From NCBI GenBank assembly GCA_016177705.1, contig JACOUT010000009.1, positions 48,057 to 112,056 of the forward strand: a DNA stretch of 64,000 nucleotides, read 5' to 3'. Every line of letters starts with the position of its first letter. The first letter of the stretch is position 1. Source of the DNA: Deltaproteobacteria bacterium. GTDB taxonomy: Bacteria; Myxococcota; UBA727; VGSZ01. This document shows, piece by piece, positions 1,703 through 60,721 of this stretch. The notes under the pieces were generated by a model, which was given only the letters and a program-made list of their open reading frames with translations, searched no databases and had not been told where the DNA came from. The translations under genes were made by a program, and so were the position numbers.

Positions 1703-2017
1703 CTAGCTGTCGTCGCCGGGCGTCGTCGCGCCGCCGGCGTTCGCGCTGTCGTCGGCCGGGGCGCCCGGTCCGCGTCGCGAGCCCTCGGGCTCGACGATCT
1801 CGAGCGTGACGCGCAGGTTTTGCTTGGCCGCCGCCGCCGACAGCAGCGTGCGGAACGCCTTGGCGGTACGGCCCTTCTTGCCGATCACCTTGCCGAGATC
1901 GTCCTTGCCGACCTTCAAGCGGTAGATGGCGTCGCCGTCGGTGCGTTGCTCGGCGACCTCGACCGGCGCCGGATCGTCCACCAGCGAACGCGCGAGGACC
2001 TCGACGAGCCCTTTCAC
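1703..2017 (-). CDS. KH-domain RNA-binding protein (UPF0109 family)
   Basis: 104 aa with a GKVIGKKGRTAKAFRTLL KH-type motif. Conserved position between rpsP and rimM. Confidence 0.8.
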   Translation of the reverse strand: MKGLVEVLARSLVDDPAPVEVAEQRTDGDAIYRLKVGKDDLGKVIGKKGRTAKAFRTLLSAAAAKQNLRVTLEIVEPEGSRRGPGAPADDSANAGGATTPGDDS

Positions 2018-2021
2018 GAGC

Positions 2022-2279
2022 TCAGCCGTCGGCCTTCGGCGCCGCGCTCTTCGCGATCGCCAGGATGTCGCGCACCGTGTCGGACGGGCGCGCGCCCTTG
2101 GCGACCCACTGCTCGACGCGATCGATCTTGAGGTTGATGCCGTGCGCGCTCTTCTTCGGGTCGTAGGTGCCGACCTGCTCGATGAAGCGGCCGTCGCGAG
2201 GGAAGCGGTGGTCGGCGACCATCACCCGGTAGAAGGGCTTTTTGTTGGTGCCGGCGCGGGAGAGACGGATGGTGACCAT
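2022..2279 (-). CDS. rpsP: 30S ribosomal protein S16
   Basis: 85 aa, [23 protein letters not shown]..., a classic S16 N-terminus. Confidence 0.92.
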
Positions 2280-3995: not shown

Positions 3996-5059
<1,064 letters not shown>

Positions 5060-6620: not shown

Positions 6621-7238
6621 ATGAGCGCGACCGCCCCCCAGGTGCTCACCGCCGCGGCGCCGCACGACGCGCTGCGGGCGCTGTTCGACGCCGCGCGCGC
6701 AGGCGACGCCGCCGCGCTCGAGTCGCTGTGTGTGCAGATGCGCCCGCGCCTGTACCGCAGCGCCTGGGCGGTGCTGCACGACGCCGATGAGGCCGACGAC
6801 GTGGCGCAGGACGCGCTCGTGCGCGCCGTCACGCGTCGCTTCCTCTTCCTCGGCAGAGGCAGCGTCGCTGGTTGGATGACCCGCATCGCGCTCAACCTGG
6901 CGAAGAACCGGCTGCGCGACGGCCGCCGCCGCCGCCAGATCCTGGACGACGCCTCGCCGGAGGAGCGCGCCTCTCGCGGCGCCGCGCCGACGGCGCCAGT
7001 CCGAGCCGACGACGTTGCCGCCACCCTGCAGGCGCGCCGTCGGCTCTCCGCCGCCGTGGCCGCGCTGCCCGAGCGGCAGCGCGAGGTGGTGGAGCTGCAC
7101 GTCTCGGCCGGCCTCGACTGGGGCGACGTCGCCGAGGCGCTCGGCATCAGCGAGGCCAACGCCCGCATGACCTACTCGAACGCCAGGAAGAAGCTCTTGT
7201 CCGCGCTCGGCGCCACCGGCGCATCGGAGGAACCATGA
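6621..7238 (+). CDS. ECF (sigma-24-type) RNA polymerase sigma factor
   Basis: Region 2 (RLYRSAWAVLHDADEADDVAQDALVRA) and region 4 (LPERQREVVELHVSAGLDWGDVAEALGISEANARMTY). The stop overlaps the next ATG (ATGA). Confidence 0.8.
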   Translation: MSATAPQVLTAAAPHDALRALFDAARAGDAAALESLCVQMRPRLYRSAWAVLHDADEADDVAQDALVRAVTRRFLFLGRGSVAGWMTRIALNLAKNRLRDGRRRRQILDDASPEERASRGAAPTAPVRADDVAATLQARRRLSAAVAALPERQREVVELHVSAGLDWGDVAEALGISEANARMTYSNARKKLLSALGATGASEEP

Positions 7239-7606
7239 GCCGCCATGACGACGTGCCCGCCGCGCTGGCGCCGCTGGCCGAACCGCCGCCGCCGCCGCGT
7301 CGCACCGACGCTGCCTTTGCGCGCGCCGTCGCCGACGGCGTCAAGCAGCGTCGCGCGCCCTTCGCGCTCTGGCTCGGCGCGCCTGCGCTGGCGCTCGCTG
7401 CCGCCGGCGTCGCCATCGTGGTCGCGGGCCCAGACGGTGGGCGGGTCGCCGTCGACGCGGGCGTGACCATCGCGCGCGCCGCCGCGGTCGAGGTCGACTG
7501 GGCCGAAGAGAGCGACTTTGCGATCCCGTCGCTGGACGGGTCGACCGATGAGGAGCTGGCGCGGCTCGATCGCGCCCTCGACGAGGCCATCAAGCTGCGC
7601 CGGTGA
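7234..7606 (+). CDS. anti-sigma factor (single-pass membrane protein)
   Basis: 123 aa, translationally coupled to the sigma factor gene. One TM helix (FALWLGAPALALAAAGVAIVVAG). Confidence 0.6.
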
Positions 7607-7642
7607 ACGAGGCAGCGACCAACGAACGACCGAGGACCGACC

Positions 7643-8191
7643 ATGCGACACGCCCACGCCTTCCTGTTGACCACCACCCTGCTCGTCGGCGCGACCGCGG
7701 CGCTGGCCGAGCCGCCGCCCGGTCCGGGCCCGGCCGGTCCCTTCGCCGGCAAGCGCGAGGAGATGCGCGCGCGCGTCGAGCAGAAGATCAAGACCTATCT
7801 CACCGTCGAGCTGGCCTCGCGCCTCGCCCTCGATCAGAAGCGCGCCCTGCAGCTCGGCGACGCCGTGCAGCGCCACATGGAGCGCAAGCACCAGCGCGGC
7901 GAGAAGATGCGCACCGAGGCCGACAAACTGCGCGAGCTGGTCGAGAAGAAGGCGCCGGATGCGGCTGTGAAGTCGCAGCTCGACATGGTGGTCGGCCTGG
8001 CCGGCAAGGACGACGACCTGCACGCCTTCCTCGGCGACACCGGCAAGTTCCTGAACGTCACCGAGCAGGCCAAGCTGGCGCTGTCGATGCCCGAGATCAT
8101 GCGCGACGTGCATCGCCTGGTGCGCGAAGCGAAGCGCGAGTTTCGCGGGCGCGGCCCGGGGCCGGGCCCAGGTCACGACGACGACGAGTGA
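7643..8191 (+). CDS. periplasmic Spy/CpxP-like (LTxxQ-motif family) protein
   Basis: Signal peptide MRHAHAFLLTTTLLVGATAALA, then a helical Lys/Glu-rich body. Third gene of the ECF operon. Confidence 0.5.
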   Translation: MRHAHAFLLTTTLLVGATAALAEPPPGPGPAGPFAGKREEMRARVEQKIKTYLTVELASRLALDQKRALQLGDAVQRHMERKHQRGEKMRTEADKLRELVEKKAPDAAVKSQLDMVVGLAGKDDDLHAFLGDTGKFLNVTEQAKLALSMPEIMRDVHRLVREAKREFRGRGPGPGPGHDDDE

Positions 8192-8244
8192 CGCGGGCCC
8201 TTCGCCGTGCCGGAGGCCTGGGATGGCAGCGACGCAGCGCCGTC

Positions 8245-8598
8245 TCAGGCCTTCTTCACGAACTCGGACTTGAGCGCCATGGCGCCGAAGCCCTCGATGC
8301 GACAGTCGATGTTGTGGTCGCCCTCGACCAGGCGGATGTTCTTCACCTTGGTGCCGGACTTGAGCGTGGCGGCGCCCTTGACCTTCAGGTCCTTCACCAC
8401 CACCACGCTGTCTCCGTCCTGCAAGAGGTTGCCGTGGGCGTCTTTGACGACGAGGCCGCCGCCCTCGTCCTCGCCGTCGGGGGCTGGCGCCGCCGCGCTC
8501 GGCGACCACTCGTGCGCGCACTCCGGGCACATGAGCAGCGCGCCGTCTTGGTAGGTGAGCACCGAGTGACACTTGGGGCAGGGCGGCAGCTCTTCCAT
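8245..8598 (-). CDS. phnA: PhnA-family protein (Zn-ribbon plus PhnA C-domain)
   Basis: 117 aa from the internal ATG: [31 protein letters not shown]...[51 protein letters not shown] classic PhnA. Confidence 0.85.
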
Positions 8599-8608
8599 GA
8601 CGGCGCTG

Positions 8609-9007
8609 CTAGCTCGGAAACGGCGCCTCGTCGACCGCCAGCGCGAACAGCACCGCCGCGACGGCCTCCTTGTGGTCGAGCAGCACCGCGCGCGCCGTCG
8701 CCTCAGGACCAAAGGCGAGCGCGCCGAGCGCGTCGGCGTCGAGCGCGACGCGCAGCGCCAGCACGCTCCCGCCGTGGCGCCGCAACAGCGTCTCCGCGTT
8801 CCGGTAGAAGCGCTCCGCGCCGTCGTTCGACAGCAGCAGGATGCGCGATACCCGTTCGCCGCGCGCCTCGCCGCGCGCCTCGTCCGCCAGGCGCTGGCCA
8901 CGCGCCGCGTTGGCCAGGCTGCGCTCGGCGCCCTCGAGGCCGCGCACGAGCTGCCCGGCGTCCGCGGCGGCCCGCAGCGCCCGCGCGATGGCGTCGCTCA
9001 TCGCCAT
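8609..9007 (-). CDS. hypothetical protein, possibly an L7Ae/L30e-like fold
   Basis: C-terminal 132 aa of ORF 8609..9421 ([31 protein letters not shown]...[21 protein letters not shown]). The upstream part of the ORF is Arg/Pro-rich and probably non-coding. The start could alternatively be 9139. Confidence 0.3.
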
Positions 9008-9206
9008 CTCGGCGACGCGTAGCTCGCTCCTTGCCCACAACGGCGCTGACGCGCCAGCCAACGCGGCGTGCACCCGTGTTGCGCGCGGGTCACCTTCGAC
9101 GAGCTTCGGCAGGCGCAGTGCGGTCACGTCGCCGAGCATGGCACACGCGCACTGCCGACCAGGGGTGCAGGGGAGCAGGCGCCCGCCGACGGCGGCGCCG
9201 AGCGGG

Positions 9207-10919
9207 TCACGGCACCGGCGCCGCGCTCGGGCCGCGCCGCGCCACTGCGCTCGCGTCGAGGCTGACGGCGGCGGCCAACTGTCCCGGCGTGAAGGGCTTG
9301 GCCAGGAAGGTCGCCCCCTTCTCGAGCAAGCGCGCGATGGCGCGCGGATCGGGGGAGTAGCCGGAGACCAGCACGACCCGCGGCGCTCGTGGCCTGGCGA
9401 GCAGCTGATCCGCCAGCTCAATGCCGCTCATGCCGTGCAGGTTGACGTCGGTGATGACAATGTCGATGGCATCCAGCGCGGTGGCGAGCAGCGCCTCGGC
9501 GGAGTCGAAGGTGTGGGGCGTCATGTCGGCAGCGCCGACGATCCGCGCCATCAGCGACCGAACGCGCGCATCGTCGTCGACGATGGCCACCGATCGTGGC
9601 CTGTGGTCCTCGTGGGATGTCGGCGGGATGTCGGCCGCGGCTCTCGCCCCTTCGGCTGCGAGCGGTAGCAGGACGGTGAAGGTGCTGCCGCGCCCAGGGG
9701 TGCTGTCGACGTCGATGCGGCCGCCGAGGCTGGCGGTGACGCCGAAGACCGTGGACAGCCCGAGCCCCGTCCCCTTGCCGGGCGCCTTGGTGGTGAAGAA
9801 GGGCTCGAACATGCGCTGCCTCACCTCGTCGGTCATGCCGGCGCCGGTGTCCGCGACGACGAGGCGGCACACCCGGCCAAGTTGCGCGTCGTCGCCGCGC
9901 TCCACGCGCACGCGCAGCTCGCCCTTGCCCGCCATGGCGTCACGCGCGTTGACGGCCAGGTTCATCACGATCTGCTCGAGCTGGGACGCCGACGCGATCA
10001 CGACCAACGGGCCGCCGCTCGTCTCCATCGTCACGCGCACCTGCTTGCCGACCAGCCGCTGCACGATGTCGCCCATGGCCTCGACCACGGCGCACGGGTC
10101 GAGCTCCATGGTGCGGACCACGTCGCGACGGCTGAAGGTCAGCAGCCGGCTCGTGAGCGCGCTGCCCCGCTCGGCGGCCCCGATGATGTCTCGCACGTCC
10201 TTGGCCGCTTCGCCTTGCAGGCCCGCCTCCTCCTCGAGCAGGGAAGCGCAGCCCCGAATCACCGTCAGCAGGTTGTTGAAGTCGTGCGCGACGCTGCCAG
10301 CCAAGAGGCCGCGCGCCTCCATGCGCTGGCTGTGCTCGAGCTTGAGCGCCAGTGCGTCGGCGCGCTCGCGGGCGGCGCGCGCGTCGACGCTGCGCTGCTC
10401 GAGCTCTCCCAGCAGCCGCCGCACGCTCACCGACGTCGCGATCGCCATCGCGCCCCCCAGGGCGCAGAGGAACGCGCCCTCGGCGTACACGTTGATGAGC
10501 GGCTGCACCGGCTCGGACGAGCTGGGTCCGAAGGCGAGCACCGCTTCACCCGCCAGCGCGACCGCGACCACGACGACCACGTGCTTCGGCGGCAGGATCA
10601 TGGGCGACAGCATGACGCCGAGCACGACGTAGAACGGCGCGTTGCCGGGGTTGCCTCGCAGCAGGCCGGCGGCGACGACGCCGGCGGTGCCGAGCAGGGT
10701 GAAGCCATAGCCGGCGGTCAGCACGTGGCCGCGGCGCGCGGCGACGATCAGCGCGCCGACCAGGACCAGGCCGACGACGTTGCCGACCACATCGGTCCAC
10801 TGGCCTGTCACGAGCGCCCAGCCGCCGAAGCCGGCCGCCTGGGCGAGGATGACCCAGCCGGCGCCCTGCGCGGCGCGCTGACGACGAAGCTGCTCGGTCC
10901 GGGCGTAGTCGGTGGGCAC
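9207..10919 (-). CDS. hybrid sensor histidine kinase (TM sensor, HisKA, HATPase_c and a C-terminal receiver domain)
   Basis: 570 aa. H-box HDFNNLLTVIRG. G-box GTGLGLSTVFG. Receiver VAIVDDDARVRSL…ITDVNLHGMSGIEL…AKPF. Confidence 0.9.
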   Translation of the reverse strand: MPTDYARTEQLRRQRAAQGAGWVILAQAAGFGGWALVTGQWTDVVGNVVGLVLVGALIVAARRGHVLTAGYGFTLLGTAGVVAAGLLRGNPGNAPFYVVLGVMLSPMILPPKHVVVVVAVALAGEAVLAFGPSSSEPVQPLINVYAEGAFLCALGGAMAIATSVSVRRLLGELEQRSVDARAARERADALALKLEHSQRMEARGLLAGSVAHDFNNLLTVIRGCASLLEEEAGLQGEAAKDVRDIIGAAERGSALTSRLLTFSRRDVVRTMELDPCAVVEAMGDIVQRLVGKQVRVTMETSGGPLVVIASASQLEQIVMNLAVNARDAMAGKGELRVRVERGDDAQLGRVCRLVVADTGAGMTDEVRQRMFEPFFTTKAPGKGTGLGLSTVFGVTASLGGRIDVDSTPGRGSTFTVLLPLAAEGARAAADIPPTSHEDHRPRSVAIVDDDARVRSLMARIVGAADMTPHTFDSAEALLATALDAIDIVITDVNLHGMSGIELADQLLARPRAPRVVLVSGYSPDPRAIARLLEKGATFLAKPFTPGQLAAAVSLDASAVARRGPSAAPVP

Positions 10920-39683: not shown

Positions 39684-41327
39684 ATGCGCACGGTCGACGT
39701 CATTGTCATAGGTGGTGGCCACAACGGGCTCGCGGTCGCCTCCTACCTGGCGCACGCCGGTGTGGACGTGCTGGTGCTCGAGCGTCGCGCCGAGTTTGGC
39801 GGCGGCCTGTGCACCGAGGAAGTGACGCTGCCGGGCTTCCAGCACAACCTGCACTCGAACTTCCACGGGGCCATGCCCTTCTTCCCGCCCTTTGGCGACT
39901 TCCAGCTCGAGAAGCGCGGCGCCATCTACCTGCACCCGCCGGCCAACACCGGCATGCCGTTGAAGGACGGCCGTGCGCTCGTGCTCTACACCGACGAGCT
40001 GCGCTCCTACGAGGAGCTGGCGCGCTTTTCCAAGAAGGACGCCGAGGCCTGGCTCGAGCTGCGCGGGCAGATGATGAACCACGTCGAGGAGCTGCTCGGC
40101 AGCGGCTACTCGCCGCCCATCGACGACGAGAGCGCCGAGCCCTACCTCGCCAGGGAGCTCGACTCCTGGTTCAAGCAGGGCGTCACCGCCATGTCGGCGG
40201 TAGAGCTGGTGCGCTCGCGCTTCGAAAACCCGCACGTGCAGGCGCTGTTGCTCTTCCACATGGCCGTCGGCGGCTGGGACGTGCGCGAGCCGGGGCTGGC
40301 GCCGCTCGGCATCGCCTTCCTCGCCTACATCACCAACTGGCAGCTTTGTCGCGGCGGCTCGCACCACCTGGCGCACCTGCTCGGCGGCGTGCTGCTCGAG
40401 GCCGGCGGCGACCTGCGCGAGGACTGCCAGGTCGCGCGCATCATGGTCGAGCACGGCCGCGCCACCGGCGTGGTGTTGACGACGGGCGAGAAGATCGCGG
40501 CGAGGAAGGCCGTGGTCTCCACGGTCGACCCCCACCAGACCTTCCGCACCATGCTCGACGAGGGCGAGCTGCCCGAGGGCATGCCCGCGCGCGTCGACGC
40601 CGTTACCTATGGCCATGGCGACGTGCTGTTCGGCGTGCACCTCGCCCTCGACGAGGCTCCTCGCTACACGGCGGCCAAGGGCAACCCCGACATCGATCGC
40701 ACCTTCAACATCAACATCGGCTACGAGCGACCCGAGGATCTGATCGAGCACTACGCCGAGATCGATCGCAAGGAGCTGCCGAAGGTGCCGCGCCTGCAGG
40801 TGGGCGTGAACACGCTGTTCGACCCCTCGCAGGCGCCGCCCGGCAAGCACACCGCCATCCTGTGGCAGTTCGTGCCGTACGAGCCCGACGGCAAGGACCC
40901 GTCGATGTGGGACCGCATCAAGGGCGAGTACGCCGAGCGCTGCATCGCCGCCTGGCGCGAGTACGCGCCCAACATCACCGGCGACAAGATCTTGGGCAGC
41001 TACGCCTACTCGCCGCATGACACGGCGCGCAAGCTCATCAACATGCGTCGCGGCGGTTTTCACTGCGCGGCGGTGCTGCAGAAGCAGGCGATCTACCGGC
41101 GGCCCGTCAAGGACGTCGGCACCATGAGGACGCCCATCGAGGGCCTCTACCTGGGCGGCTCCTCCTGCCACCCGCACGGCGGCATCACCGCGGGGCCCGG
41201 CTACAACTGCTTCCAGTTGCTGGTCGAGGACCTCAAGCTCAAGACGCCGCACGTCGGCAACAAGTTCTGGGAGCCGGTGCGCGATCAGTGGCGCGCGCGC
41301 ATGCGAACCATGGGGTTCCGCGTATGA
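39684..41327 (+). CDS. phytoene-desaturase (CrtI)-family NAD(P)/FAD-dependent oxidoreductase, paralog 1
   Basis: VDVIVIGGGHNGLAVASYLAHAG dinucleotide-binding motif. Length 547 aa. Confidence 0.75.
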   Translation: MRTVDVIVIGGGHNGLAVASYLAHAGVDVLVLERRAEFGGGLCTEEVTLPGFQHNLHSNFHGAMPFFPPFGDFQLEKRGAIYLHPPANTGMPLKDGRALVLYTDELRSYEELARFSKKDAEAWLELRGQMMNHVEELLGSGYSPPIDDESAEPYLARELDSWFKQGVTAMSAVELVRSRFENPHVQALLLFHMAVGGWDVREPGLAPLGIAFLAYITNWQLCRGGSHHLAHLLGGVLLEAGGDLREDCQVARIMVEHGRATGVVLTTGEKIAARKAVVSTVDPHQTFRTMLDEGELPEGMPARVDAVTYGHGDVLFGVHLALDEAPRYTAAKGNPDIDRTFNINIGYERPEDLIEHYAEIDRKELPKVPRLQVGVNTLFDPSQAPPGKHTAILWQFVPYEPDGKDPSMWDRIKGEYAERCIAAWREYAPNITGDKILGSYAYSPHDTARKLINMRRGGFHCAAVLQKQAIYRRPVKDVGTMRTPIEGLYLGGSSCHPHGGITAGPGYNCFQLLVEDLKLKTPHVGNKFWEPVRDQWRARMRTMGFRV

Positions 41328-42913
41328 GCCACGTCGAGTCGAGCTACGACGTCGTGGTCATCGGCGGCGGCCACAACGGGCTCATCTGCGCCAACTATTT
41401 GCAGCGCGCCGGCCTGTCGACGTGCGTCTTCGAGGCGCGCCTGGAGGCGGGCGGCGGCCTGTGCACCGAGGAGACCACCATCCCGGGCCACCTGCACAAC
41501 CTCGCCTCGGTCTTTCACGACGCGGTCGAGGTCATGCCGGCCATGAAGGACCTGGAGCTGTCGCGCTTCGGCATGGAGTACCTGCGCCCCGAGGTGCAGC
41601 TCGGCCTGGCGCTGCGGGAGGGCCGGCCCTTCTTGCAGTACGACACCGTCGACAAGACCTGCCGCGCGATCGAGCGCAGGAGCCACGCCGACGCCGCCGC
41701 CTGGAACGCGATGGCCGAGGGCTACGACGAGTACTTCCGCACGCTCATCATGCCCGCGCTGTACGCGCCGCCGCCCAAGGCCTCCGAACAGGCGCTGGCG
41801 CTCGAGGAGACCGAGCAGGGCAGGGGCTTTTTGCGCATGCTGCGCGCCGCCCCGGTCGACGTCGCGTGTGACACCTTCGCCGACGAGGCGACGCGGGCGG
41901 CGCTGTTGTTTCAGCTCTTGGTGCCGCGCGGCGTGGTCTACGACTCGGCCGGGCTCGGCATGATGATCCCGCTCGTCGTCACCGGCATCGAGCAGTCGCA
42001 CCTCGCCAAAGGCGGCTCGCACCACCTGGCGCATGCGCTGTGGCGCGCGCTCCTGTCGGCCAAGGGCAAGCTGCGCGGTACCCTCAAGGTGAGCGAGATC
42101 GTCGTCGAGGGCGGTCGCGCCGTCGGCGTCGTGCTCGAGACCGGCGAGCGCGTCAAGGCGACCAAGGCGGTGGTCTCGGCCATCGACATCGAGCAGACCT
42201 TCCTGGAGCTGGTGGCCGAGAAGCACCTGCCGGCCACCTTCCGAAAGACCGTCGCGAGCCACAAGCCCGACGAGTTCTCGCTGTTCGGCGTGCACCTCGC
42301 GCTGCGCGAGCCGCCGCGCTACCGCGGCGCGGCGATGGAACCCGACCTCGACCGCGCCTACAAGGTCGGCATCGGCTTCGAGACGGTCGCCGACTTCCAC
42401 GAGCTGTTCGCCGACGTGCGTCTGGGCCGCCTGCCTGAGAAGCCGAGGATGTTCGCCTGCTGCCCGACGCTGTTCGACCACACGCAGGCGCCGCCCGAGC
42501 GGCACACCGCCTTCTGCTGGGCGATCGCGCCGTACCGCCTGCGAGACGGCGGCGCCGACGCGTGGGACCGGCACTCGGCCTCGTTCGCCAAGCGCTGCCT
42601 CGAGGCCTGGCGCGAGGTGGCGCCCAACGTCGGTGGCGACAACATCCTCGCCATGCGCACGCTGTCGCCGCGCGACATCCCACGCAAATTCGCCAACATG
42701 CGCGAGGGCGGGGTCTTTGGTGGGCGCATGTCGCAAGACCAGCTCGACGCCTTCCGGCCCCTCCCCGAGCTGTCCGACTTCCGCACTCCACTGAAGGGCC
42801 TGTACCTGGCGGGCGCGAGCCAGCACCCCGGGGGCGGTATCCTGGGAGCGTGCGGCGCCATCGCCGCCGAGGCCGTGGCGGAAGACCTGCGCATTCACCC
42901 CTGGTGGTCCTGA
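41324..42913 (+). CDS. phytoene-desaturase (CrtI)-family NAD(P)/FAD-dependent oxidoreductase, paralog 2
   Basis: YDVVVIGGGHNGLICANYLQRAG. It shares the same architecture and many conserved blocks with paralog 1. The start overlaps the previous stop (ATGA). Confidence 0.75.
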   Translation: MSHVESSYDVVVIGGGHNGLICANYLQRAGLSTCVFEARLEAGGGLCTEETTIPGHLHNLASVFHDAVEVMPAMKDLELSRFGMEYLRPEVQLGLALREGRPFLQYDTVDKTCRAIERRSHADAAAWNAMAEGYDEYFRTLIMPALYAPPPKASEQALALEETEQGRGFLRMLRAAPVDVACDTFADEATRAALLFQLLVPRGVVYDSAGLGMMIPLVVTGIEQSHLAKGGSHHLAHALWRALLSAKGKLRGTLKVSEIVVEGGRAVGVVLETGERVKATKAVVSAIDIEQTFLELVAEKHLPATFRKTVASHKPDEFSLFGVHLALREPPRYRGAAMEPDLDRAYKVGIGFETVADFHELFADVRLGRLPEKPRMFACCPTLFDHTQAPPERHTAFCWAIAPYRLRDGGADAWDRHSASFAKRCLEAWREVAPNVGGDNILAMRTLSPRDIPRKFANMREGGVFGGRMSQDQLDAFRPLPELSDFRTPLKGLYLAGASQHPGGGILGACGAIAAEAVAEDLRIHPWWS

Positions 42914-52983: not shown

Positions 52984-53664
52984 CTATTGAAGGTCGAACT
53001 GCGCTTCGCAGTTCTTGTCCTCGGTCATGATGAGCTCGACCGGGCCGGTGCCCGCGCAGTCGACCTTCCACTCCACGAACACCGAGCCCGGATCGGGGGT
53101 GGGTGTCAGCGTGTCGATCTCGCCCACGAAGTAGGCGCCAACGCAGTCGGGCGGACAGTCGATGCGCGGCGTGCCGCCGCCGCCGCCCTGGTTGGTCAGC
53201 GTGCCGGTGATGGTGCCGCTGCCGGTGCCCGAGAACAGCACCTGCAGCGTGTGCACCTGGCGAAACTCGGCGCTGCACGTGACGATGGTCTCGGCCGGGT
53301 CGTCGGCCAGCACCGCCTCGATGGTGTCGTCGACCAGCTCGCGCTGCGCGGTGGTGCCGTCGGGGAAGGTGACGCCGCACAGCGCGTCGATCAGGTTGGC
53401 GTCGCGCGACGGCTCGACGCGCACGCTCATGGCGGTGCCGGGCACGACGGTGATGCTCTGGCTGTCACAGGCGCCGTCGCAGTCGATGCCGTCCGGGTCG
53501 GAGCGGTAGCTGCCGGTGCCGTCGCCGGTCTTCTGCACCGTCAGCGTGACGCCCGGCGGGCCCGCGTCGGCGTCCGGGTTGGGGCCACCGGGGCAGACCA
53601 ACGGGCAGGCGGGCAGCGCCGCGAGCGCCGTCATGGTGAGCAGGGTAGTGGCCGAATGCGTCAT
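52984..53664 (-). CDS. secreted lipoprotein with two InlB-B-repeat-like domains
   Basis: Signal/lipobox MTALAALPAC. Two repeats of the GxGxGTx…DGIDC…C…V…G…V pattern. Confidence 0.55.
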   Translation of the reverse strand: MTHSATTLLTMTALAALPACPLVCPGGPNPDADAGPPGVTLTVQKTGDGTGSYRSDPDGIDCDGACDSQSITVVPGTAMSVRVEPSRDANLIDALCGVTFPDGTTAQRELVDDTIEAVLADDPAETIVTCSAEFRQVHTLQVLFSGTGSGTITGTLTNQGGGGGTPRIDCPPDCVGAYFVGEIDTLTPTPDPGSVFVEWKVDCAGTGPVELIMTEDKNCEAQFDLQ

Positions 53665-54224
53665 GGCTCCACCGCGGGGTCGAGCGGGTCGCTGCCGCGA
53701 CAGGTCTCGACCAGGTTGGTGCAGGCGGCCGGGTCGCCGCCGCTGCAGCTATCGTCGAGGTCGCACAGGGGCACGGTGGCGCCGTCGAGGACGACGCCGG
53801 CCGAGCCCGCGAAGGTGTCGAAGCGCATGTCGAGGCAGGAGCCGTCCGAGATGGCCTCGGCGGGCATGATGAAGGTCGCCGTCGGCTGCACCTCGTCGAC
53901 GAGCGCCAGGTCGCCCTGCGCCTGCGCCAGCACCAGCTCGAGGCCATCCTCGCGCCCGAGCGGCCGGTACCAGTCGATGGTCAGCTTGCGCACCAGGCCG
54001 GGGGCGATGTCGGCGGTACCCGACGTCGTGTTGGCGGCGGCGTCGTAGCTGAGCGGGTAGGGCTCGTCGTAGCCGCTCACCCACAGCCGCGCCGTCAGGT
54101 CGGCCGGCGGCGCGGCGCACTCGACGGCGAGCGCTTGAGGGTTCTCGATGGCGATGGTGGCCGGCTCCGACGGCGCGCACGCCGCCAGCGCCACCAGCAG
54201 CAGGCCGAGAACGCGCCCGCTCAC
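53661..54224 (-). CDS. hypothetical lipoprotein
   Basis: GTG start overlapping the upstream stop (GTGA). Lipobox LLLVALAAC. Cysteine-containing secreted domain. Confidence 0.5.
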   Translation of the reverse strand: MSGRVLGLLLVALAACAPSEPATIAIENPQALAVECAAPPADLTARLWVSGYDEPYPLSYDAAANTTSGTADIAPGLVRKLTIDWYRPLGREDGLELVLAQAQGDLALVDEVQPTATFIMPAEAISDGSCLDMRFDTFAGSAGVVLDGATVPLCDLDDSCSGGDPAACTNLVETCRGSDPLDPAVEP

Positions 54225-54916
54225 GGCGCGACCGCCGCGATGGGCGAGCCGCCGGTGATGGTCACCGCGACGGTGGCCGGTGGGCCCGACAGCAGCGCCG
54301 CCACGCCGAGCCCGATGCCGGCCGCGGCGCCGAGCACGATGACGGCGCCGACCGCGATGCCTGTGCCCCACAGCACCGCGTCGTTGCTCTCGTCCGGCGG
54401 CTTCTTGTCCGCCGGTGGGTGGTCGGGCGGCAGCGGCGTCACCGTCGTCGTCGTCGTGGTGCCTGCGAGCACGCGGGGCACGCGCAGTGGCGTCGCTTCG
54501 TCACCGGCGCGCGCCGGCCCGTTGCCGTTCTCGTCGTAGGCCTCGATCAGGTACTCTAGGTCGGCGGCGAGCAGCGCCGCCGGCACCTCGGCCGCGTAGC
54601 TGTCGGGCTTGCCCTCGACCGGCTTGAGCGGCACGCGCTCGAAGCTGCCCCCGGGCGCGCGCACCAACAGCGCCGGGTCGAACACGCCGCCGTCGTCGAC
54701 GATGGCGGCCTCGATGATGAGCGGCCCCGCGCCGTCGTGTTGCGCAGGTGGCGTGTGGGTGATGACCGGCGCTTCGGTGTCGGCCTTCTTGGTCTTGCGC
54801 TTGGCGACAGCCCCTGGGGCGGCCACCAGCGCGGCGCCGAGCACGGCGCAGAGCACGGCGCCGTGCTTGGCACCCGAGGCGCGGCCTAAAGGTTGGCGGC
54901 CCGATCGGAGCGTCAC
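54221..54916 (-). CDS. secreted protein with a Thr-rich linker and a C-terminal TM anchor
   Basis: Signal peptide GAVLCAVLGAALVAAPGAVA. A TTTTTVTPLPP linker. C-terminal TM helix GIAVGAVIVLGAAAGIGLGVAALL. Confidence 0.5.
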   Translation of the reverse strand: MTLRSGRQPLGRASGAKHGAVLCAVLGAALVAAPGAVAKRKTKKADTEAPVITHTPPAQHDGAGPLIIEAAIVDDGGVFDPALLVRAPGGSFERVPLKPVEGKPDSYAAEVPAALLAADLEYLIEAYDENGNGPARAGDEATPLRVPRVLAGTTTTTTVTPLPPDHPPADKKPPDESNDAVLWGTGIAVGAVIVLGAAAGIGLGVAALLSGPPATVAVTITGGSPIAAVAP

Positions 54917-55020: not shown

Positions 55021-55689
55021 ATGACCAGCGGCAAGAAGCAGATCGGCGTCATCCTGTCCGGCGCCGGCTTTCTCGACGGCTCCGAGATTCACGAAGCGGT
55101 GCTGGCGCTGCTCGCCATCGACGAGGCCGGCGCGGAGGCGCGCGTGTTCGCGCCCGACGGCAAGCTGGCCGAGGTCGATCACAAGACCGGCAAGCCCACC
55201 GGCAAGGAGCGCGGCGTGCTCGAGGAGGCGGCGCGCATCGCGCGCTCCAACATCGCCGACCTCGCGTCGGTCGGTGGCGCCGACGTCGACGGCTGGGTGC
55301 TGCCGGGCGGCTACGGTGCCGCCAAGACCCTGTCGGACTTCGCCAGCAAGGGCGCCGGCGCCACCGTGCACAAGGAGGTGGGCCGCGTGCTGCGCGAGGC
55401 GCTCGCGGCGCAGGTCCCCGTCGGTGCCTGCTGCATCGCGCCCGCCGTCGTGGCTGCGGCCGCCAGGCAGGCCAACGCCAAGCTGCGCCTCACGATCGGC
55501 AACGACCCCGACACCGCCAAGCAGATCGCCGCCATGGGACACGCCCACGTCGTCTGTCCGGTCGACGATGTGGTGGTCGACACCGATCGCAAGGTGGTGA
55601 CCGCGCCCGCCTACATGTACGACGCGCCAATCGCGGCGGTCGCGCGGGGCATCAAGAAGATGGTGCAGCAGGTGGTTGCGTGGGCGTAG
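55021..55689 (+). CDS. elbB: DJ-1/PfpI-family glyoxalase ElbB
   Basis: MTSGKKQIGVILSGAGFLDGSEIHEAVL…, a typical ElbB (isoprenoid biosynthesis protein with amidotransferase-like domain). Confidence 0.8.
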   Translation: MTSGKKQIGVILSGAGFLDGSEIHEAVLALLAIDEAGAEARVFAPDGKLAEVDHKTGKPTGKERGVLEEAARIARSNIADLASVGGADVDGWVLPGGYGAAKTLSDFASKGAGATVHKEVGRVLREALAAQVPVGACCIAPAVVAAAARQANAKLRLTIGNDPDTAKQIAAMGHAHVVCPVDDVVVDTDRKVVTAPAYMYDAPIAAVARGIKKMVQQVVAWA

Positions 55690-55790
55690 CGGCAAGCTGA
55701 ACCCGGCCTGCCAACCGCGCCCGCGCGCATGTCGGCCCGGTGGCGCCGCCGCGGCGCACCGCACTGTCGCCGTCGCGGTACACTGTCCCC

Positions 55791-58268
55791 ATGGGGGAAC
55801 GTCGGACTGCGCTCGCTGCGGCCGTGTGCGGCTGCCTGCTCCTCGGGGCATGCCCTGGACGCACCCCCGATCGTGGAGGCGAGGGCGAAGGAGAGGGAGA
55901 GGGCGAAGGAGAGGGCGAAGGAGAGGGCGAAGGAGAGGGCGAAGGAGAGGGCGAAGGAGAGGGCGAAGGAGAGGGTGAAGGAGAACCTACATGGCACCGC
56001 GACCTGCCCAAGGTCGAGGTGTATGCGGTGTCGAACCAGCCTGACGCCATCCGACTCGCAGGGCGATCCTACGCCGCGGGTGAAGCCTGCCTCGTGCAGG
56101 AGATCGGGCTCGACGGCACCATGGGCGCGAGCGCGTCGCTCCCGGTCAGGTGCATGGCGGGCGCTCTCGATGCAGCCGGCGGTGTGTTCATCGCGCGGGG
56201 GCCCGCCAGCGTCGAGCTCCCTGGCGGCACACTGACGCTCTCGTCGAGCCAGCGCGCGCTCATCCGCCTGCCTTTGCAGGGGCCCGCGGTGGCTGCACTG
56301 CTCCTTTACGAGGATGAGCCCTTCCAGATCGCCGTCACCGCCACGGGCGTCGTGGCCCTCGCCAGTTGGAATGGCGACACGACCGTGACCACCTACGCTC
56401 AGGGCAACACGGGCCGCGGCATCGTGGCGACCGGCGCGCCGGTCACGCGGCTCGGCTCCGGTGACGAGCTCTTGACTGCCGTGACGCGCAACGCCGCCGG
56501 TGAGGCGCGCCTCATTGCCATCGATGCCGCGACGGCCACGACCCGCTGGAGCGCCGCTTTGCCCCCGGGGACCAGCCCCTACGACACGTACCCGTCGTCG
56601 AGCATCGACGGCGTTCGAGTGTGCGGCAATCGCGCCGATGGTGACACGTCCGAGGGCTTCGTCCAGTTGCGAGACCTCGTCACGGGTTCGGTATTGCGCG
56701 AGCAGGCTACGCCGGCCGAGGTGCTCGCGTGCTCGCTCGGCGACGAGGGCAGTACGTGGACGATCGGATCAGATGTCCTTGCGCGCCTCGACCCGGATCC
56801 GGCGCAGTTCGAGCTGCTCACGGCCCAAGAACACACCGAAGCCGCCTTCATCGCGCAGCTCGCCGGCGACCTCCTCGTCGTCGCGACCGTCAACGCCACC
56901 GCGGACCGCCTGCCGCCGCTCGAGCCAGGACGCATCGGCGGCACCCCCGGCACCTGGACCACGCTGGTCGCGCGCGTTCCGCCCCAACAGCTGCGCACCG
57001 ATGACGGGCTCGCCCCCATGCACCAGGCGGACGGCTTCGCGCGCGACGGTGCGAGCTGGATCGCAAGCTCGGAGACGTGGCCGATGTCCATCGAGGTGGA
57101 GCCGGCATCTGGTGACATCATCGTGACGAAGGCCGGGCCTAGGTGGTGCGACATCGATCGGCTGTCGGAGGACGGCAGCAGCCTGCTGCACCGGCGCTTC
57201 GAGGTCGCGCAGTCCATCTATCCCTCGTGCAAAGGGGCCGCCATCGAATCGAGCACGTTCGTGGCTGTCGGCAGCCACAACGCCGTAGCGCTCGACGTGA
57301 CCGTCGACGGTCAGGTGGTCCAGCTCCCGGCGGGTTCGCACCTCCTGCTCGCGCTCGACGACGCTGCGGTGGAAGTGGGGCGCGTGCAGCTGCAAGCCAG
57401 CACGGTGAGCCTGACCGCCGACGGGGACGCTCTGCTCGTCTTCGACGGCGGCTTCCAGTGGGATCCTCCGCAGTTGCGACGCTTCGGTCCCGGGCTCGTG
57501 GACCTTGGCGCTGTCGAGATCGCCATGACTCGTCTCTTGGCCTTCTCCGGATTTGAGCCCGGTGTGCCGCGCGTCATTTCGCTGCAGGGCGGCGACGCGC
57601 TCGTCGTGACCCCCGCCCTCTACTGGACCATCGACGTCACCTTCGATGACGACAGCGTCGCGAGCGTCCCGGGCGAGGGATCGTTGGCGTTCCGCGTTGC
57701 TCCCGACGGCCGCATGCGCTGGGTCGTCGCGTTCCCGGGGCACAATGGATCCATGGACCCGCCGCGGGTGAAGGACGCCGCCGTCGACCAAGCGGCCGCG
57801 ACCGCGGAGCTCTGTGGCGGCACCTTGGGCGGAGAGGTCATCGACGGGCGGTCCGGGGCAGCAGTGGCGACGCTCGTCGGTCCCGCCTATGCCGGCTTCT
57901 GCCTCGAGCTCGACCTCGCCAACGGCAGCGTGCGCGCCCTGCACCAGCCCGCCGGCACGAGTGAAGTCACCGCCGTCGCCTTTCTCGCCGGTGAGCCGAT
58001 CGTCGTCATCAACGACGGCAGCTACCACAACCTCACCCTCCGGAGACTGCACGACGGGATCGATCTGCCCAGGTTGTTGGTCGGCAGCGCGCTCCCGCCG
58101 CGTTCGGTGCTCGTCGCCGGCCCCGCGGACCGGTACCTGCTCCTCGGCGCCTTCGCGGCAGCTCACGCCGACGCCTCGGCGATCGTGCCCGGCTTCGAGT
58201 TGCCCGGGGTGGCGGGGTACTACGACGGCTTCGTCACGCGCATCGACGCCTCGTGGCTGTCCCCGTAG
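55791..58268 (+). CDS. large lipoprotein with an N-terminal (Gly-Glu)~17 tether and an 800-aa domain of unknown function
   Basis: Lipobox CLLLGAC, then the GE repeat, then EPTWHRD…. No catalytic motif recognised. Probably beta-rich. Confidence 0.6.
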   Translation: MGERRTALAAAVCGCLLLGACPGRTPDRGGEGEGEGEGEGEGEGEGEGEGEGEGEGEGEGEGEGEPTWHRDLPKVEVYAVSNQPDAIRLAGRSYAAGEACLVQEIGLDGTMGASASLPVRCMAGALDAAGGVFIARGPASVELPGGTLTLSSSQRALIRLPLQGPAVAALLLYEDEPFQIAVTATGVVALASWNGDTTVTTYAQGNTGRGIVATGAPVTRLGSGDELLTAVTRNAAGEARLIAIDAATATTRWSAALPPGTSPYDTYPSSSIDGVRVCGNRADGDTSEGFVQLRDLVTGSVLREQATPAEVLACSLGDEGSTWTIGSDVLARLDPDPAQFELLTAQEHTEAAFIAQLAGDLLVVATVNATADRLPPLEPGRIGGTPGTWTTLVARVPPQQLRTDDGLAPMHQADGFARDGASWIASSETWPMSIEVEPASGDIIVTKAGPRWCDIDRLSEDGSSLLHRRFEVAQSIYPSCKGAAIESSTFVAVGSHNAVALDVTVDGQVVQLPAGSHLLLALDDAAVEVGRVQLQASTVSLTADGDALLVFDGGFQWDPPQLRRFGPGLVDLGAVEIAMTRLLAFSGFEPGVPRVISLQGGDALVVTPALYWTIDVTFDDDSVASVPGEGSLAFRVAPDGRMRWVVAFPGHNGSMDPPRVKDAAVDQAAATAELCGGTLGGEVIDGRSGAAVATLVGPAYAGFCLELDLANGSVRALHQPAGTSEVTAVAFLAGEPIVVINDGSYHNLTLRRLHDGIDLPRLLVGSALPPRSVLVAGPADRYLLLGAFAAAHADASAIVPGFELPGVAGYYDGFVTRIDASWLSP
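55876..55985 (+). repeat. tandem 12-nt repeat (ggcgaaggagag)n encoding (GEGE)n
   Basis: Near-perfect 12-nt periodicity over about 110 nt inside the lipoprotein gene. Confidence 0.85.
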
Positions 58269-58321
58269 CCCGGCGAGGTGCGCGGGTCTTCGACCGTGCC
58301 CGCACGCAGGCGCGCCGCGCC

Positions 58322-58383
58322 GATCGCCGCGGTAGCGCGCGGCATCAAGAAGATGGTGCAGCAGGTGGTTGCGTGGTCCTAGC
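58322..58383 (+). repeat. relic duplicate of the 3' end of elbB (about 18 codons plus stop)
   Basis: 58322..58383 encodes IAAVARGIKKMVQQVVAWS*, versus PIAAVARGIKKMVQQVVAWA* at 55633..55692. The nucleotide differences are mostly synonymous. Confidence 0.8.
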
Positions 58384-58432
58384 GGACCGTTGAAAAACGA
58401 GCGGCTGGGCAGCCTGTGCCCGAGGAGCCGCC

Positions 58433-60721
<2,289 letters not shown>

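Follow-up and report, generated by a model that had tools for sequence, protein, structure and literature searches.

The elbB–lipoA–lipoB locus and its direct repeat

The window analysed here is a stretch of 64,000 nt from a Deltaproteobacteria bacterium (assembly GCA_016177705.1, contig JACOUT010000009.1). In it, the gene elbB (55021..55689) is followed by two genes for putative lipoproteins, lipoA (55791..58268) and lipoB (58433..60721), all on the plus strand. The 3' end of elbB is present twice, once as the end of the intact gene and once as a short relic between lipoA and lipoB. This duplication of the elbB tail is most likely an ordinary recombination scar, the trace of a known kind of event, and it encloses a segment that is missing at this position in all relatives of the locus.

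The product of 55021..55689, of 222 aa, is a genuine ElbB, an isoprenoid biosynthesis glyoxalase of the DJ-1 superfamily. It matches the NCBIfam equivalog NF008747 with 265.8 bits (cutoff 180) over residues 6–221 of 222 and the PDB structures 1vhq and 1oy1 with an E-value of ~5e-58, and its full-length orthologues are 78–91% identical. The gene is separated from lipoA by an intergenic region of 101 nt (IGR1, 55690..55790), which ends in TACACT-N6-ATG and, beyond its first ~12 nt, belongs to the lineage-specific segment. The lipoprotein ORF (open reading frame) at 55791..58268 had been described before and is present as claimed; it encodes 825 aa with a putative signal peptide, the lipobox LLLGAC and a Gly-Glu tether coded by 55875..55985. 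A spacer of 23 nt (58269..58291) connects the lipoA stop codon to the relic and forms the right-hand junction of the insert; in register, it matches elbB only at background level (10/30). The unique part of the insert (55702..58291, plus strand) thus measures 2590 nt, made of 89 nt of upstream spacer, lipoA and the 23-nt downstream spacer. Besides lipoA, neither a recombinase domain nor a second real ORF was found in the insert.

The repeat search identified the two copies on the plus strand at 55599..55701 and 58292..58394, as direct repeats of 103 nt with 83% identity and an offset (duplication period) of 2693 nt. It is the sole repeat of this kind in the window, the remaining ones being the Gly-Glu tethers and one tandem paralogous gene pair. 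Both copies contain an exact core of 36 nt, GGCATCAAGAAGATGGTGCAGCAGGTGGTTGCGTGG, at 55648..55683 and 58341..58376. This core is found nowhere else in the window, where no match was expected, and gave 0 matches in 100 shuffles of the sequence. The repeat is not a low-complexity sequence. It had been reported in a preliminary description of this DNA as ~60 bp at 55633..55692, equivalent to 18 codons and the stop, with 30 bp as the length below which the similarity was to be dismissed. The repeat is real and exceeds that length, and its position and size have to be revised: elbB ends at 55689 (stop codon 55687..55689), ~4 nt off the earlier coordinates, 55629..55690 pairs with 58322..58383, and the similarity spans the last 30 codons of elbB, the stop codon and ~12 nt behind it.

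The left edge of the repeat, at 55599/58292, is sharp. In the ungapped register, the first block of 30 nt has 22 matches, compared to a background of 8.9 ± 2.7 for blocks of this size, and none of 20,000 random pairs reached 21; the 30 nt immediately upstream have 10 matches, which is the background level. The right edge fades ~12 nt past the elbB stop codon.

The upstream copy, which comprises the live end of elbB and the 12 nt behind its stop codon, matches the elbB tails of the outgroups throughout, including a conserved YMYD motif. The downstream copy would be a dead relic, according to the repeat search, the edge test and the alignment of the tails. Four codons differ synonymously between the live and the relic tail (CCA/CCG, GCG/GCC, GTC/GTA and CGG/CGC), three of which had been listed correctly before, while the pair ggg/ggc results from a mis-parse of CGG GGC / CGC GGC. 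Further differences, left unlisted before, are GCG to GTG (A to V), GCC/GCA, TAC ATG TAC GAC to CGC AGG CGC GCC (YMYD to RRRA) and, in the last codon before the stop, GCG to TCC (A to S). Within a core of 57 nt, all differences are synonymous.

The substitutions are distributed unevenly along the relic. Its 5' part (58293..58319) is substituted at 8 of 27 nt, six of them AT to GC, compared to 1 of 57 in the core (58320..58376). This corresponds to a Fisher p of 0.0004, or of 0.015 in the worst case, with each of the four differences in the core assigned to the relic, and an equally AT-rich stretch inside the core, ATCAAGAAGATG, is untouched. No ORF of at least 40 aa of its own lies in the relic frame, no Rfam family came near its threshold, the fold z-scores are −0.04 and +0.31, and neither a sigma-70-like promoter nor an intrinsic terminator consensus is present in it. 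The relic would be a non-functional and non-coding scar. It lies in the frame of lipoA behind the TAG stop codon (58266..58382), a coincidence of frame with a chance of 1 in 3. Read-through of this TAG would append 37 residues ending in the ElbB C-terminus, ...PIAAVARGIKKMVQQVVAWS; there is no hint of such read-through.

Relatives of the locus, of the relic and of lipoA

Related loci lack the insert. The locus L001, from a metagenome-assembled genome (MAG) of the Myxococcales with an ElbB of 88% identity, consists of elbB, 115 nt, a lipoB orthologue of 79% identity and, coded on the opposite strand, the same MMPL gene as in the window; lipoA is absent anywhere in its 11 kb. The same order of elbB, lipoB and MMPL is found in L002 and L003 (ElbB 87%, spacer of 50 nt) and in L009 and L010 (ElbB 78%, spacer of 25 nt), and in all five loci the lipoB orthologue, 59–79% identical, follows directly after elbB. 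The closest relative, L011 (ElbB 91%), is a contig of 967 nt, whose 127 nt behind elbB comprise a spacer of 53 nt and a signal peptide of the lipoB type. A counterpart of 55702..58291 was found neither in L001 nor in the other loci by blastn and tblastn, and none of the relatives examined has two elbB genes. The flanks of the insert are syntenic with the relatives without it.

By this comparison, lipoA is a gain specific to the lineage of the window, because the loci above run directly from elbB to lipoB, without lipoA and without a second tail. The preliminary description had considered a footprint of gene gain and had proposed an alignment to orthologous loci. That alignment bears out the gene gain: insertion-free elbB–lipoB junctions, with no lipoA, are what the recovered relatives have, and each of the 12 related loci holds a single elbB tail.

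The slot behind elbB varies in two other relatives. In L006, genes of 219, 312 and 296 aa and a HAD hydrolase (6651..9910) replace lipoB before the conserved MMPL gene, and in L008 a convergent gene (1730..2083) lies directly after elbB.

The two tails of the window are each other's nearest relatives. Over the 57-nt core they match at 53 positions; the next is L011, with 48/57 against the live copy and 51/57 against the relic. Both window copies have derived states in common that the outgroups lack, namely ATC AAG (L011 has AGG; L001 and L002 have ATT CGC), GTT GCG and, after the stop codon, CGGnnnGnTGAA. It follows from this proximity and from the shared derived states that the relic is a copy of the same gene's tail, made after the split from L011. 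Judged by these alignments, the duplication of the tail is local and the relic does not derive from a diverged paralogue. Upstream, the homology starts abruptly 23 nt past the lipoA stop codon, and no more of elbB can be traced, the match being at background at 58291.

A former second elbB-like gene, with a replaced 5' part and a tail that evolved for a time under protein-level constraint, had been proposed earlier from the synonymous changes. When the four synonymous differences in the core are polarised against eight outgroup loci, this proposal is not favoured: CCA, GCG and CGG are derived in the live elbB and only GTA is derived in the relic. Most of the changes that belong to the relic itself are non-synonymous (A to V, YMYD to RRRA, A to S), and YMYD to RRRA hits conserved residues, as YM.D is invariant in every relative examined. 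Synonymous-only changes are expected in a live gene, so the pattern is uninformative on a past function of the relic. This calls for caution in general: differences between a gene and a fragment that are all synonymous are no proof that the fragment once functioned, since the changes may sit on the live copy. A pseudogenised elbB2 of a distinct lineage was rejected because the adjacent elbB is the nearest sequence to the relic (53/57) and has the same derived states; residual homology and relatives with two copies were also considered as signs of such a gene and were not found, the match at 58291 being at background and the 12 loci having a single tail.

The relatives of lipoA itself are very few. 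A word-sharing search of 5.8 billion clustered proteins returned only lipoA (P0001) and one other protein, P0002 (HYS27_22435), which is encoded on another contig of the same MAG and is 44% identical over 99% of the length. When 1.84 billion representatives were scanned exhaustively with HMMER, only P0123 and P0124 (27–30% identical) were added, and the family thus consists of four clusters. Within it, lipoA and P0002 are mutually nearest, and both are ~27% identical to P0123 and P0124. P0123 is encoded in the MAG that also contains L001, though at an unrelated locus (L014), and P0124 comes from a short contig (L015); neither an elbB fragment nor similarity to the edges of the insert was found at these two loci. 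No curated family of Pfam or NCBIfam matches lipoA, and no further loci of the lipoA family and no further 36-nt core were found in the JGI metagenomes. The AlphaFold (AF2) model of lipoA is all-beta, with a mean pLDDT (predicted local distance difference test) of 61 and ~80 in the C-terminal half. Foldseek matches it to tandem beta-propeller proteins, as a fold class only, and the body of the modelled protein is probably a tandem beta-propeller.

A signal peptide, a lipobox (...LAG-C and ...LAA-C) and a Gly-Glu tether are also present in P0123 and P0124 themselves. The tether is therefore native to the lipoA family and not borrowed from lipoB. The family is one of tiny membership, made of fast-evolving tethered lipoproteins. 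It is possibly relevant to research on myxobacterial surface proteins. In the public annotation, P0001 (749 aa) starts at GTG 56019 and thereby omits the signal peptide, the lipobox and the Gly-Glu tether. The true start of lipoA is probably ATG 55791, because the homology with P0002 reaches upstream of GTG 56019 and because P0123 and P0124 have a signal peptide and tether.

The codon usage of lipoA is native-like and resembles that of its neighbours, with a GC content at third codon positions of 0.86 and a correlation of relative synonymous codon usage of 0.93. No compositional sign of a foreign origin was found, the GC content being flat across the insert. As the nearest relative of lipoA is a paralogue in the same genome, the gene was probably duplicated and relocated within the genome or within the population, and not acquired by distant transfer. 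According to a rough clock, the distance between lipoA and P0002 is 0.63 of that between P0002 and P0123, and the divergence between the two repeat copies is 0.3–0.8 of that between the window and L001; this is compatible, at very low power, with a copying of lipoA at the time the repeat arose.

Origin of the insertion

At this locus, a stretch of resident sequence is directly duplicated on the two sides of DNA that the relatives lack. From this footprint we infer, as a fairly probable origin, one recombination event of the RecA type, with its anchor in the tail of elbB. In this event, a 2.6-kb segment with lipoA would have been inserted, in one lineage only, between elbB and its ancestral neighbour lipoB. 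The insertion would have duplicated the last ~90 nt of elbB together with ~12 nt of spacer, so that the stretch of ~103 nt is now found to the left and to the right of the insert; the upstream copy is still the end of elbB, and the downstream copy (58292..58394) would be the scar. One option for the exchange is a Campbell-type single crossover, in which a circularised fragment carrying the ~100-bp stretch beside lipoA recombined with the chromosome. An equal option is homology-facilitated illegitimate recombination (HFIR), in which the far end of the fragment would have been attached inside elbB, at a point ~90 nt before its stop codon. The scar marks the position of the join and shows that the duplicated stretch derives from a resident gene. 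The locus would be a clean and datable example of a chromosome gaining one gene without mobile-element machinery.

Both options have parallels. In E. coli conjugation, a circular molecule with a fragment of the lacZ end integrated into the chromosome by a single crossover and generated duplications of 109–950 bp of that fragment, which flank the insert (PMC3240628). As in this system, the insert at elbB is flanked by a duplicated gene end, one side retains a whole target gene and a dedicated recombinase is not required, and the ~103 nt border the experimental range of 109–950 bp (PMC3240628). However, the elbB case is deduced from one natural locus with a hypothetical circular intermediate, its copies have diverged unevenly, and a homology of this length is at the lower limit for RecA-dependent exchange. 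HFIR-like displacement, which leaves orphaned 3' ends of genes, has been proposed for the effector–immunity arrays of the Vibrio type VI secretion system and for Rhs loci (PMC5361080). The elbB locus would share with HFIR and ‘C-terminal displacement’ (Acinetobacter, S. pneumoniae, P. stutzeri; PMC5361080) the homologous anchor in a conserved gene combined with an illegitimate far join, and the displacement of the anchor gene's old 3' end downstream, where it is kept as an orphan. The displaced ends in those systems are variable toxin domains with cognate immunity genes, in recurrent arrays, whereas at elbB there was a single duplication, of ~30 codons from a housekeeping-type gene, and nothing points to recurrence. 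A further comparison is the lpl cluster of S. aureus, which also consists of tandem lipoprotein genes with breakpoints inside the ORFs and not between them, and whose evolutionary unit comprises the 3' end of one ORF, the intergenic stretch behind it and the 5' end of the next (PMC2568036). The lpl paralogues, however, recombine at a conserved central region, while lipoA and lipoB are unrelated and the repeat derives from a third gene, elbB.

Several observations weigh against such an anchored recombination. A donor or intermediate in which lipoA lies beside an elbB tail was not seen. An independent short-read assembly (L013, run SRR12113419) confirms the left junction; it is identical to the window over elbB, IGR1 and the start of lipoA and ends inside the tether. 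The right junction is covered by one MAG contig. The uneven decay of the relic is unlike the simple neutral decay of one duplicated stretch. It could be explained by gene conversion from the live copy, by selection on the core or by a hybrid (att-like) origin. If the core has been kept intact by selection or exchange, the repeats might serve as a site for precise excision and re-insertion of the lipoA cassette, to which we give very little credence; if true, lipoA would be a reversible single-gene cassette that targets the 3' end of a gene, either recombinase-free or served by a recombinase in trans.

The region upstream of lipoB is a further difficulty for a simple insertion. A block CTTCGCC-N17-TACGGT-N7-ATG is conserved there in L001 (1275..1317), L002 (6683..6722) and L011 (857..896), and looks, from its sequence, like the promoter of a leaderless mRNA. 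This promoter-like block is missing in the window, where the intergenic region of 50 nt before lipoB (IGR2, 58383..58432, plus strand) has instead a Shine-Dalgarno sequence, GAGGAG, at 58422..58427, 5 nt before the ATG. The lipoA spacer contains weak collinear look-alikes of the outgroup boxes, which are not significant; if they are real, the event was more complex. Local and semi-global alignments of the window spacers with the ancestral elbB–lipoB spacer gave, against shuffles, p-values of 0.03–0.9 in six comparisons each, which are not significant. Either lipoB, once placed second after lipoA, had its expression signals remodelled, or a simple insertion into the elbB tail falls short of the complexity of the event.

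Other origins of this structure can be weighed on the same evidence. Duplications of ~100 nt can arise in bacteria by template switching. Replicative template switching, through fork stalling or microhomology-mediated break-induced replication, or the fill-in of a staggered break, would here have produced a long target duplication: the nascent strand would have left the elbB tail, copied lipoA at the paralogous locus and returned ~103 nt upstream. This is the main rival, though an unlikely one. It needs one step only and no homologous anchor on the incoming molecule, and it agrees with the local origin of the duplication, a cargo that is a same-genome paralogue with native codon usage, the lack of mobile-element genes and a copied unit that ends very tightly around the gene, 23 nt past the stop codon. 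A fresh target duplication should decay evenly, however, and the relic does not. Another rival is the site-specific integration of an element remnant or a trans-mobilised segment, with its attachment site in the 3' end of elbB, where a tail mimic of the element would have restored elbB and the displaced native tail would have become the relic. Genomic islands integrate in this way into the 3' ends of tRNA, tmRNA and protein-coding genes and leave attL/attR repeats. The elbB locus has their anatomy, with direct repeats that include the 3' end of a gene, an element-proximal copy that restores the intact target, a perfect core (here of 36 nt) and diverged arms. A hybrid origin would account for a left arm of the relic that is far more diverged than the core, the last codon of the relic, TCC, is one step from the GCC of L011, and the slot after elbB is variable (L006, L008). 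Unlike such islands, the insert contains no integrase or any gene besides lipoA, its single cargo gene is of chromosomal type and its flanks are syntenic. A second relic is absent from the window and from any relative, no elbB fragment lies near the other lipoA-family loci, and viral and proviral contigs carry neither a mimic of the ElbB C-terminus nor a relative of lipoA. Neither the att-like sequence nor the cargo recurs in related loci, JGI metagenomes or viral contigs, and no paper in the literature searched pairs elbB with ‘integration site’. Such an integration is thus improbable.

The remaining explanations are less convincing still. A second elbB paralogue could once have been located between the two lipoprotein genes and have been reduced to its last ~20–30 codons. 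The differences in the 57-nt core, which are all synonymous and would be so with a chance of only ~0.004 for four random substitutions, speak for it, but three of the four arose in the live gene, the substitutions of the relic itself mostly change the amino acid and the relic shares the lineage's derived states with the adjacent elbB. With an abrupt edge of homology 23 nt past the lipoA stop codon and no relative with two elbB genes, a lost paralogue is highly improbable. Much the same doubt applies to an ancestral lipoA that the relatives lost by precise, scarless recombination between the repeats. The identical core of 36 nt could support such an excision, and the loss would mimic an insertion-free junction; it would, however, have to have occurred independently in at least four lineages, and the outgroups share a conserved elbB–lipoB spacer block that is unlike either spacer of the window. 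In addition, lipoA and P0002 are mutually nearest and equidistant from P0123, at another locus in the L001 genome, so that lipoA seems to have arisen by a duplication confined to the lineage of the window. Finally, strain variants joined into a chimera have to be considered, as the source is a MAG and L013 contains only the left junction. The 5' part of the relic (…GTGCCCGCACGCAGGCGCGCCGCG…) matches no recovered elbB tail, though, and is joined to the 3' flank of lipoA, so that mis-joining two intact elbB alleles cannot produce the relic; an assembly artefact is accordingly the least credible of the origins considered.

Neighbouring genes and other repeats

The ancestral downstream neighbour of elbB, lipoB, encodes 762 aa with a putative signal peptide, a Gly-Glu tether and domains of a glucose/sorbosone dehydrogenase and an SO2930-type dihaem cytochrome c. 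The former is matched by Pfam GSDH with an E-value of 9e-44, the latter by TIGR03806 with 5e-74, under that model's cutoff. The putative lipobox cysteines of lipoA and lipoB, read by eye from the translations, are MGERRTALAAAVCGCLLLGA-C and MRIAVVASLLTLALSPS-C, respectively. A tandem duplication of lipoprotein paralogues was ruled out as the source of the two genes; the best BLASTP E-value between lipoA and lipoB is 0.8, and they are unrelated beyond the tether. Gly-Glu tethers directly behind the lipobox cysteine recur in unrelated lipoproteins of the lineage (58508..58589 in the window, 6239..6316 in L001). They are coded differently, by a 12-nt unit, GAAGGAGAGGGC, in lipoA and by 6-nt GGCGAR units in lipoB.

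Directly upstream of elbB, three small overlapping genes (~226, 185–193 and 194–222 aa) lie on the minus strand (52984..54916 in the window). This block is kept in all relatives with enough sequence (L002 4006..5905, L006 4067..5948, L009 4049..5891) and forms a stable unit together with elbB. One of its products has a faint match to Flg_new_2.

Elsewhere in the window, the tandem paralogous genes at 39695..40880 and 41347..42535 share stretches of 72–80% identity, ~1652 nt apart, and their similarity includes the region of a GGGHNGL-type dinucleotide-binding motif. Two adjacent copies of 77 nt at 4550..4722 (GTTGCCGTCGTCGCAC...), 96 nt apart and 71% identical, are probably a repeated cysteine-rich coding module.

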